A stretch of DNA of 64,000 nucleotides, taken from assembly GCF_002854065.1 (NCBI RefSeq), contig NZ_CP024147.1. One strand, given 5' to 3'. The position numbers are program-made. Shown in pieces: positions 9,701 through 12,700 of this stretch (positions within the stretch are counted from its first letter, which is position 1; each line of letters opens with the position of its first letter). This stretch comes from Escherichia coli. GTDB taxonomy: Bacteria > Pseudomonadota > Gammaproteobacteria > Enterobacterales > Enterobacteriaceae.

Positions 9701-12700
9701 CGACTATCAAAGCCACGAACTTTTACCTGTTCTTCGTTGCGGCTGCCTGACTTTTGCAGCACCACGCCGGGGACGACACTTAATGCCTGAGCGACATTCT
9801 GTTTATCCAGGGCCTTCATGGTGGGTTGATCGAGAACGGTGGTCGTCGTCGATGATACCGGACTGGACCATACGGTCAGCGTGTCGCTCTCCTGAGCCGC
9901 TACGGCCTGCTGGGTAAAGGCAAGTGATAATGCTGTGCAGAGATAACGTTTTTTGAGTCTCATAGAATAAATTCCGTTTAACAAAGAATTAAATAGAGGC
10001 TGCGGGTTGCAGACTGACTTTAATGTCAGCCGGTGCCGCGTAATAAGGCGCGGAGGTAATAAAGAGGCGAATGCCGCAGTCGAGGTAATTTTTGAGTGTC
10101 GTCAGATTAATTCCGCCGGTCAGAGCCAGCGTGCAGTGGGGAGCCAGCGACGGCGCTATTTGCGCAATTTCAGTTGCCTGTTGCGGACTAAATTTGTCGA
10201 GCTGAAGTACGTCTGGTTGCGCGCGTAACGCGGCGATTGCCTCTTTCGGCGTGTCGGCTTCAACAACAATTTTCTTCTCGGGTGCGTGGCGACGTAACTG
10301 ATCGATTGCGCCTGACCAGTCCTGATTGTCATGAAGAAAATGGCGGTGGTTGGCAAACAATAATATGGTTTCCGCACATCCGGCACGATGAATCAGTCCT
10401 CCGGCAGCCAGAATTGCCTGCGAGGCCAGTAAGCGGGTGCCCGGAATTGCTTTTCGGGTGCAGGCGATATTGCCATCAGGATAACGTTCACGAAGTAACG
10501 CCAGCATTTGATCGAGATAATCAGAAACACCGCAACTCCACTCCAGCACATTCTGGATTGCCTTCCATCCCTGATGAAGTGCTGCGGCATTACCCTGCGC
10601 ACGGATTAGCCGCTGACCCGCGTTCGCTTGTGAACCGTCGCTGACCGCGTCATCAATAGTTAATCCCAGCGTAGTTAACATCTTACACGCGACAGAAACG
10701 CCGCTGACGCAGCCGCCCTGACGGAGAAAAAACTCTATATAGCCATGCTGGTGTCCAATATTTAATGCTCTCGTGGTCAGGTCACCGCCCTGGATATCTT
10801 CCAGAAGTAACGCGTCGATTTGTGCCTGAGAAAGGAAAATCATCGCAGTGCCTCCTGCGGTACGCTATCCCACCAGATGAGCGCCCAGTCGCGGCTGGCA
10901 GGGGCGAGGGCACGAGCATCTTGTTGTTGATACCAGCGATATAACCGCTCACGCTCATCGTCGTTAAGCGCGCCAAGACTCCAGCTGACGTTCTGCTCAA
11001 AACGTTCCCAGGTGCTGTTATCCTGTTGGCAATTTTGTCCACGGATAAAATCAACGTGGGCATAAATTCCCATCTGATACAGGACGTTGAGCGCAAAGAT
11101 ATAGTTGGGTAATTCGATCACTTCCCGACCAGCCGCCCGCTGAATGGCTGGAGAGACGAACGAGGTGCTGACCAGATGAGTCGTATAGACGCGAAGCCGT
11201 GCCTGATTATTCAGTTTGCTCATTGCCTGGCGCATATCAGCTACCAGAGTGGAGCGGGAAGCCACGGCAATATCGCAGCGTGGCAGGTCACTCCAGTCCT
11301 CTTCCCAGGCGCGCTGGATCCAGTGGACATTGTCTGCCTTGAGAGCGGCGGCGCGACGGGCGGCAACGTTCAGCATCCCCTGACTGTAATCAATGCCATA
11401 AATCGTCGTGAGTTTGTCAGCCAGCGCCAGCGATACGGTACCCGGTCCGCAGCCCATATCGAATAAGGTCTGAGCGCCTTGTAGGTCAATTTTTGAGATC
11501 AGTTGTTGCAGGTAGCTGTCCGTAGGCGAGGCGCAATTTTCCGCCATTTTTTCCGCCCGTTGATCCCAGTGATCCGGCGTTTTTTCTGTGCGGTGGGCCA
11601 GCTTGAGTTGCTGCAGATAAAGGTCTGCAAAATCAATATCATCAATGAGCATGATTTTTCCTTAGTGGCTAATTGCAGAGAGGTGATGATGAATCTGGTC
11701 GGCAGAAACCCGATACAGGGCAGCCAGTTTGTTTGTTGTTAACTGTTCGGTCGGTAAGCCTTGTGTTACTCGTCCATCTGGCTCTACCTGGATAATGCTG
11801 TCGGCAATGGCGTTGGCATGGAGCGGATGATGAGTCGACATTAACATTGTCATGCCGTTATTTTTGAGCTGTGCCAGCGTGTCCAGTAGTTGGATCTGAT
11901 GACCGAAATCGAGGCTGGAGGCAGGCTCATCCAGTAACAACAAGCGCGGTTGCTGGACGAGTGCACGGGCGATTAAAGCCAGCTGACGTTCACCGCCGCT
12001 AAGCGTATTCCAGCGTCGTGCCGCCAGATGCAAAATGCCCAGCTTTTCCAGTTGCTCCGTGGCTTTCAGGCGTTCTTGCTTACCGGGAACGGAAAAAGCG
12101 CCTATGGTGGGGGCCAGGCCCATCAACACCATATCCAGCACACTAAAAGCAAAAATACCGTCGTGCGCCTGCGGCACCCAGGCAATAGCCTGCGCGCGCT
12201 GGCGATGGCTGAGTGTCTGCACAGGGAGGCTATCCAGTAAGACCTCGCCTTTTAATAACGGTATAACGCCAAGAATGGAGCGCATGAGTGTGGTTTTGCC
12301 GCAACCATTGGCTCCTAACAGACAACAAATTGTTCCTTGCGACAGGGTGAAGGACACGTCGCGTAGCACCGGATGGCGGGAGTAACCCAGAGACGCATGA
12401 CGGACGGCAAGCAAAGTCACTGGCGACCTCCGCGTAACAACAAAAGCAGGAAAAACGGTGCGCCAACAAAAGCGGTCAGAATGCCAAGTGGGATTTCTGT
12501 TGTTCCAATGCTGCGTGCCAGCGTATCGGTAAGCAGGAGCAGAATCGCGCCAGTACACATTGCCATGGGCAACAGCTGCTGATGGTTATGACCGGTCAAC
12601 AAGCGGGCAATGTGCGGAACGACCAGGCCGACCCAACCAATTATGCCCGCTATTGCTACCGTACTGGCGGTGATTAGTGTGGCGCAGACAATCAATCCAA

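Follow-up and report, generated by a model that had tools for sequence, protein, structure and literature searches.

Several described systems bear on the locus analysed here. The modABC operon of Escherichia coli K-12, which is repressed by ModE, encodes a type I oxyanion importer that has neither an outer-membrane receptor nor accessory enzymes. MolBC-A of Haemophilus influenzae (HI1470/HI1471/HI1472) is a type II molybdate/tungstate importer. Its chromosomal neighbour is modD (HI1473), which according to the H. influenzae genome paper adjoins molABC in a "secondary molybdenum transporter region". ModD is likewise encoded with a molybdate transporter in modABCD of Rhodobacter capsulatus and in operons consisting of modA-like, NifC-like and ModD genes (i.e., the TIGR01581 context), where it comes after type I transporters and is not paired with a methyltransferase. 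According to the description of family TIGR01334, an R. capsulatus modD mutant shows a mild phenotype. The Fur-regulated Fec, Fhu and Fep systems, on the other hand, combine an outer-membrane receptor, a class III binding protein, a FecCD permease and an ATPase. We analysed a 64,000-nucleotide stretch of E. coli contig NZ_CP024147.1 (assembly GCF_002854065.1; hereafter "the window"), in which a receptor and an importer of this latter architecture are encoded in one operon with ModD and an S-adenosylmethionine (SAM)-dependent methyltransferase. We consider it probable that this operon is a molybdenum-starvation-induced, ModE-controlled, TonB-dependent system for the acquisition of molybdenum (Mo) or tungsten (W).

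The operon comprises six tightly packed genes on the minus strand, in the order binding protein, permease, ATP-binding cassette (ABC) ATPase, methyltransferase, ModD and TonB-dependent receptor (Table 1), within an accessory island flanked by ymgE/ycgR and treA; the RefSeq annotation of an identical locus agrees with our calls for the flanking genes. Positions 7900-14500 of the window are 100% identical to E. coli strain 100416. Of the 5426 complete E. coli genomes, 2139 (approx. 40%) contain at least 80% of this interval; K-12 is without the operon. The same locus has been described as the prrA-modD-yc73-fepC cluster of uropathogenic E. coli CFT073, as S-loop#83/OI#55 (ECs1693-1699) of O157:H7 and as genomic region 9 (ymgE..treA) of avian pathogenic E. 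coli BEN2908, so that the locus as DNA, the cluster name, the annotation of ModD and its standing as a protein of unassigned function were already known. The papers that name the prrA-modD-yc73-fepC cluster label it as putative iron uptake, on homology only, and mention neither a ModE operator nor a link to molybdenum; our literature search also found no description of ModE control or of a molybdenum role for the cluster, although the site may have been predicted computationally before. A preliminary description of the window, made from the sequence alone, had placed a ModD-like protein and a methyltransferase at 9989-11652, inside a transporter operon with a TonB-dependent importer, and had noted that the start of the former overlaps the stop of the latter. 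The two reading frames, their overlap (ctgcgATGAttt, i.e., ATGA) and the flanking transport genes are all as it proposed, and its statement that ModD is without a defined biochemical function still holds. The ModE operator and the molybdenum context, both of which it had missed, are new as far as our literature search shows.

The operator, CGATATATA-N6-TATATAGCG, ends 24 nucleotides (nt) before the ATG of the binding-protein gene and agrees without a mismatch with the core of the consensus for E. coli ModE, ATCGNTATATA-N6-TATATANCGAT (PMC545781). It is the only match to the ModE pattern in the 64-kb window, and the same pattern also recovers the validated modA and moaA sites of K-12. The modA operator of K-12 (CGTTATAT-N8-ACATAACG, read from NC_000913) shares this format and likewise lies shortly before the first start codon, ending 19 nt before the ATG. 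The perfect TTGACA found 17 nt upstream of the operator presumably belongs to the promoter; as the operator would then sit in place of the -10 element, the arrangement would have the geometry expected of a repressor site. A generic promoter and terminator scan gave no more matches than shuffled sequences and was thus uninformative, and a scan of 7400-15000 against Rfam (E ≤ 1) gave no match, i.e., no cobalamin, molybdenum cofactor or other riboswitch.

This operator is conserved. Boxes agreeing at 12 to 14 of the 14 specified positions precede 41 of the 43 scorable orthologous operons, which span ten genera (Escherichia, Citrobacter, Raoultella, Enterobacter, Klebsiella [K. indica], Pantoea, Pectobacterium, Proteus, Morganella and Providencia), while of 2150 trials with shuffled upstream regions 5 reached at least 12. 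In a multi-genus alignment of the upstream regions, the ModE-type box and a TTGAyA -35 hexamer are the only conserved blocks. Moreover, in Proteus, Morganella, Providencia and Pectobacterium, which have a long spacer between ModD and the receptor, the receptor gene is preceded by a second box of its own. From these sequence comparisons we infer that ModE binds to and represses the operon.

To describe the company that ModD keeps, genomes (one per species) were scanned with a 17-sequence ModD alignment, yielding 80 loci with ModD of at least 44% identity, which were then sorted by tblastn with the six E. coli operon proteins. The complete six-gene operon was found in the same order at 41 of the 80 loci and partial variants of it at 4, while 5 loci (Edwardsiella, Leminorella) have the overlapping methyltransferase-ModD pair alone and at the other 30 no methyltransferase adjoins ModD. 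The pair is thus adjacent at 50 of the 80 loci, 45 of which also have a TonB receptor, which answers in the affirmative the question, raised in the preliminary description, of whether the pair co-occurs with such receptors in other genomes. By these comparisons the methyltransferase-ModD pair is a conserved and, to judge from the overlap, translationally coupled unit. ModE-type boxes also precede the pair in Edwardsiella, lone ModD genes in Cedecea colo, Photobacterium damselae, Photobacterium carnosum and an Alcaligenaceae metagenome-assembled genome, and operons in Pasteurellaceae and Yersinia alsatica that encode a modA-like binding protein (TIGR01256), a permease of the NifC-like type (274 bits on TIGR01581), a ModC-like ATPase of short length and, with these, ModD. 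A natural deletion is present in Intestinirhabdus alba (locus L024, 2780-2920), in which the three ABC genes are gone and a full box (ATCGATATATATGTAAATATATAGCGAT) with a remnant of the binding-protein start runs directly into methyltransferase, ModD and receptor. The operon of Citrobacter koseri (L015) seems decayed: it retains the ModE box and the genes for ATPase, methyltransferase, ModD and receptor, but gave no permease match and a weaker match (48%) for the binding protein.

Glaesserella australis has the same functions in three box-preceded operons, one with a receptor (35% identical to that of E. coli over its full length), a FecE-like ATPase and a methyltransferase (34%), one with a permease, an ATPase, a binding protein and ModD, and one with a binding protein (41%) and a permease (61%). 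ModD is here flanked by both the MolBC-A system and the system described for E. coli. Between the receptor-ATPase-methyltransferase operon and the MolBCA-like/ModD operon of this species lies a 243-amino-acid (aa) open reading frame (ORF; L080, 6204-6935) that is weakly similar to methanogenesis marker protein 11 and to TiaS (E approx. 1e-8 to 1e-10).

More distant ModD genes are also found among genes for molybdenum. A metagenomic cluster (L087) has the order Mop-modA-modB-modC-modA'-permease-ModD-TonB receptor-ModE-Mop; its receptor has no homology to the E. coli receptor beyond family level, so that the receptor was recruited there independently. One distant ModD gene is flanked by a modA-like gene and the gene for an ABC ATPase, and another is near MoaE, MoeB-like and FdhD genes in an archaeal contig; for two representatives (P0127 and P0133) the contigs were too short to give a genomic context. 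The TOBE and Mop domains bind molybdate, and NifQ is the molybdenum donor for the iron-molybdenum (FeMo) cofactor. Fusions in the ModD family include ModD with NifQ, ModD with two TOBE domains and an ABC nucleotide-binding domain (NBD) with ModD. The first of these, P0196 (382 aa, metagenomic), has a C-terminal NifQ domain (Pfam, E=3e-21) with the RWKKFLY motif and a cysteine cluster, and as read from these domain matches it is a direct domain-level link of ModD to the molybdenum donor of FeMo-cofactor synthesis. Taken together, the association of ModD elsewhere with modABC-like and MolBC-like transporters, ModE, Mop/TOBE and NifQ and the ModE operator of the E. coli operon place the operon in the context of molybdenum or tungsten handling. 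The "modD" of M. maripaludis that appears in a preprint on randomly barcoded transposon sequencing (RB-TnSeq) is described there as an ATPase and was not used as evidence for the ModD family.

The E. coli ModD itself reaches 504 bits with TIGR01334 (cut-off 178.85), the match spanning all 277 profile positions (1-277), and 134.9 bits on the NadC profile TIGR00078, which is under the cut-off of 198.4. A sequence search of the PDB found no ModD structure, the best matches being quinolinate phosphoribosyltransferases (QAPRTases) with E=3e-19 or weaker. The AlphaFold model (predicted local distance difference test [pLDDT] 97.3) aligns in Foldseek with the QAPRTases 2B7N, 7XGM and 1QPR at template modelling (TM) scores of 0.85-0.89, and ModD is accordingly predicted to have the fold of the type II phosphoribosyltransferases, i.e., an N-terminal open sandwich and an alpha/beta barrel. 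The quinolinate-phosphoribosyltransferase fold and the NadC signature motifs that the preliminary description had reported are thus confirmed, the latter as TRKAIPGTR, GGLIHR and LQLDKFSP.

Most, but not all, of the catalytic residues of NadC are kept. We aligned 87 ModD representatives, each standing for a cluster at 50% identity, and placed them on the NadC of M. tuberculosis by means of a HMMER alignment. Conserved across the family are NadC Thr138, Arg139 and Lys140 (ModD T129, R130 and K131), His161 and Arg162 (H152 and R153), Glu201 (E195), Asp222 (D/E216) and the GG loop (G243 and G244), and the Arg105 position is occupied by Lys or Arg. By contrast, Lys172 is replaced by Phe163 in 83 of the 87 representatives, Glu104 by Trp93 in 79 and Leu220 by Gln214 in all 87, and Asn223 is replaced by Lys217. 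According to the 1QPR work, the cationic residues that bind quinolinate in M. tuberculosis NadC are Arg105, Arg139, Arg162, Lys172 and His161. This set is incomplete in ModD, in which Arg139, His161 and Arg162 are kept and Lys172 is replaced. The alignment therefore suggests that the side of the site that binds phosphoribosyl pyrophosphate (PRPP) and phosphate is preserved while the quinolinate side has been remodelled in a family-specific and strongly conserved manner, which argues for a real ModD ligand other than quinolinate. ModD may be a PRPP-using enzyme with a new acceptor or an oxyanion-binding partner of an ATPase that takes the place of a TOBE domain.

The latter model, in which ModD would be not an enzyme but a regulatory or hand-off subunit of an ABC ATPase, replacing the TOBE domain of ModC and holding molybdate or tungstate in the phosphate sites for PRPP, is favoured by several features. 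The NBD-ModD fusions carry ModD where ModC normally has TOBE, the Pasteurellaceae ModC-like ATPases encoded upstream of ModD are short (206-222 aa; in one locus, L075, the ATPase stop overlaps the ModD start), ModD is also fused to TOBE and to NifQ, and conservation in the family is highest at the cationic residues and in the GG phosphate loop. The acidic ribose/Mg residues Glu195 and Asp/Glu216 are also conserved, however, which suggests catalysis or sugar binding. We regard the hand-off model as possible, if doubtful; as it concerns the role of ModD only, it is compatible with a molybdenum or tungsten acquisition role for the operon as a whole.

The preliminary description had suggested the modification or release of an imported pyridine-dicarboxylate-like ligand. 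In this reading, ModD would phosphoribosylate the compound as NadC does quinolinate and the methyltransferase would modify it. The NadC fold, the conserved residues Arg139, Lys140, His161, Arg162, Glu201 and Asp222 with the GG loop, and the conservation of the methyltransferase-ModD pair with transport genes are consistent with this proposal. However, the replacements of Lys172, Glu104 and the invariantly exchanged Leu220 imply an altered dicarboxylate pocket and argue against such a ligand; ModD also occurs without the methyltransferase or a TonB receptor, beside modA-like oxyanion transporters, and the operon has a ModE-type control site. We consider this proposal unlikely, and it would survive only if the heterocycle were a molybdenum carrier.

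The transport proteins can be compared with both the molybdate and the iron systems. The best solved relative of the permease is MolB (HI1471; 222 bits), ahead of FhuB (170 bits) and BtuC (140 bits), and its NCBIfam matches to BtuC, Fec and Fhu profiles (233 bits for BtuC) are all under the cut-off. The best single-domain PDB match of the ATPase is MolC (HI1470; 126 bits). A longer, GTG-initiated ORF for this ATPase runs to 12558, overlapping the permease gene by approx. 140 nt, and is probably not the form used; RefSeq places the start at the ATG at 12420. The binding protein, the best PDB sequence match of which is 4PAG (97 bits), begins with MSLTRRRFTQ (14380-14419), and the twin-arginine motif (S/T/N-R-R-x-F/L) is kept in its Enterobacterales orthologues (L006-L061), though not in Glaesserella, which suggests that the protein is exported in folded form through the twin-arginine translocation (Tat) pathway. 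FhuD has a Tat signal, and the binding protein of the operon resembles it in this respect. In the receptor, a TonB-box-like DTLTVWS follows the signal peptide and subfamily matches to TIGR01783/01785 extend over the full length; the Proteus orthologue has the plug and TonB_dep_Rec barrel domains of Pfam. Compared to MolBC-A, the E. coli operon has a MolB-like permease and a MolC-like ATPase, has a binding protein that resembles 4PAG more than MolA and adds the TonB receptor and the methyltransferase.

It could be argued that the operon is an iron or siderophore uptake system in which ModD and the methyltransferase are incidental passengers or take part in siderophore processing. Its receptor, class III binding protein, FecCD permease and FecE-like ATPase reproduce the architecture of Fec, Fhu and Fep and have NCBIfam matches to those families, and the published descriptions say iron uptake. 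Nevertheless, all of these matches are under the curated cut-offs, the iron label in the papers on the cluster rests on homology only, elsewhere ModD is accompanied by molybdate genes, and the operon, unlike Fec, Fhu and Fep, includes two cytoplasmic enzymes among its transport genes. Moreover, a scan for the Fur box (GATAATGATAATCATTATC) in the 344 nt upstream of the operon gave a best match of 13/19, which is the background level of the window; it is the ModE box that is conserved instead. We therefore consider an iron or siderophore system very unlikely.

The methyltransferase has motif I as DMGCGPG (residues 65-71), which is invariant in 33 homologues. It matches only broad Pfam families of class I SAM methyltransferases (Methyltransf_31/25/12/11), while no NCBIfam equivalog reaches its cut-off, the sub-threshold matches including CpaM (44.5 bits), CbiT, RlmD, UbiE and others. 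Its predicted structure (pLDDT 90) has small-molecule N-, O- and S-methyltransferases as nearest folds (TM ≤ 0.6), and a PDB sequence search returned generic small-molecule methyltransferases only, from which no substrate was assignable. We take it to be a generic small-molecule enzyme of class I. Salvage of a corrinoid, cobalamin or another cofactor by a BtuB/BtuFCD-like route with a corrinoid-related methyltransferase, which the BtuC profile matches of the permease and the CpaM and CbiT matches of the methyltransferase might suggest, is highly improbable given that all of these scores are far under cut-off, that MolB outranks BtuC among solved structures and that 7400-15000 has no cobalamin riboswitch or other Rfam family.

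Homologues of the methyltransferase in Shewanella are 60-64% identical, i.e., higher than those in Proteus. At the one Shewanella locus examined (S. avicenniae, L086, 9001-9816), the gene stands alone beside a transposase gene and approx. 2.5 kb from a Nitro_FeMo-Co (NifX/NafY-like) gene. The Shewanella homologues suggest horizontal transfer of the methyltransferase alone.

Based on these data, we propose that the six genes would be repressed as one operon by molybdate-bound ModE, so that the operon would be on when the cell is short of molybdenum. Import would proceed through the TonB-dependent receptor, the Tat-exported binding protein and the MolBC-like type II ABC importer. The cargo would be a molybdenum or tungsten species unable simply to diffuse through porins, most likely molybdenum on an organic or bulky ligand; we speculate that it is not free molybdate because the system uses a TonB receptor and its class III binding protein shows little likeness to MolA. 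The methyltransferase and ModD would be cytoplasmic partners that act after import. ModD, with its predicted NadC fold, apparently intact PRPP/phosphate-binding site and remodelled base pocket, might be a general accessory of molybdenum trafficking that elsewhere works with modABC-type transporters, whereas the methyltransferase would be a lineage-specific addition, probably modifying the imported ligand or molybdenum species.

A number of points weigh against this proposal. Free molybdate needs no TonB receptor and a bulkier molybdenum species must therefore be postulated. ModE responds to tungstate too, so that molybdenum and tungsten are not separable. The binding protein matches MolA (HI1472) with 36 bits over residues 206-287, as compared to 97 bits for 4PAG, and in view of this weak similarity its ligand need not be a free oxyanion. 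The nearest NCBIfam profiles of the receptor are siderophore and haem subfamilies (all under cut-off), and the literature labels the cluster as iron uptake. Finally, ModE binding and molybdenum-dependent expression are predicted from sequence comparison, and the reactions of ModD and the methyltransferase are conjectural.

A more specific version of the molybdenum acquisition proposal, which we put forward tentatively, is that pathogenic and commensal Enterobacterales (E. coli, Citrobacter, Proteus, Providencia, Morganella and others) have an unrecognised TonB-dependent pathway that pirates ligand-bound molybdenum (such as a "molybdophore", a catecholate- or thio-molybdate complex or a pterin cofactor fragment) under molybdenum starvation; the methyltransferase would strip the molybdenum from its carrier, and ModD, a repurposed NadC, would perform or couple the first committed step of cytoplasmic molybdenum trafficking. 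If so, ModD, an orphan since 1993, would gain a biochemical function.

Molybdoenzymes, i.e., those of nitrate, formate, dimethyl sulfoxide (DMSO) and trimethylamine N-oxide (TMAO) respiration, drive blooms of Enterobacteriaceae in the inflamed gut, and tungstate is under study as a means to block them. If the operon is indeed an uptake system of the molybdate regulon that combines an outer-membrane receptor with a type II importer and has two enzymes embedded in it, it would provide a second route for molybdenum or tungsten, dependent on TonB and controlled by ModE, and this would change the view of molybdenum supply in these pathogens. This route would be present in approx. 40% of complete E. 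coli genomes as well as in Proteus, Providencia, Morganella and Citrobacter. The label of a cluster that has for long served as an "iron" virulence marker would change, and a shift from iron to molybdenum would be surprising for a marker in such common use. ModD, a widespread family, would also gain a testable context in a tractable organism, with an operator, a transporter and a partner methyltransferase.

Table 1. Positions of the genes and control elements of the six-gene operon in the window
Feature	Position	Strand	Basis or remark
ModE-type operator CGATATATA-TGTAAA-TATATAGCG, perfect inverted repeat	14444-14467	minus	consensus match
-35-like hexamer TTGACA	14485-14490	minus	read from sequence; 17 nt upstream of operator
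Peripla_BP_2-type (class III) binding protein, twin-arginine signal TRRRF	13397-14419	minus	ORF, profile matches, RefSeq
FecCD/BtuC-type permease of type II ABC importer, MolB-like	12417-13397	minus	1-nt overlap with binding-protein gene
ABC ATPase, 252 aa	11662-12420	minus	RefSeq start; start overlaps permease stop by 4 nt
Class I SAM-dependent methyltransferase, 270 aa (literature name yc73)	10840-11652	minus	9-nt gap after ATPase
ModD, 284 aa, NadC-fold, TIGR01334	9989-10843	minus	start overlaps methyltransferase stop
TonB-dependent outer-membrane receptor, 656 aa (literature name prrA)	7993-9963	minus	25-nt gap after ModD

Two further observations concern other parts of the window. A 167-aa ORF on the minus strand (22429-22932), located between the gene for a DhaR-like regulator (20141-22069) and ychF (23650-24741), presumably encodes the InsB protein of IS1, which would indicate a copy of IS1 in the window. 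The best Fur-box-like match of the whole window (15/19; GAAAATGATAACCAATAGC, 23268-23286, minus strand) is not close to the six-gene operon but lies between this IS1-like ORF and ychF.

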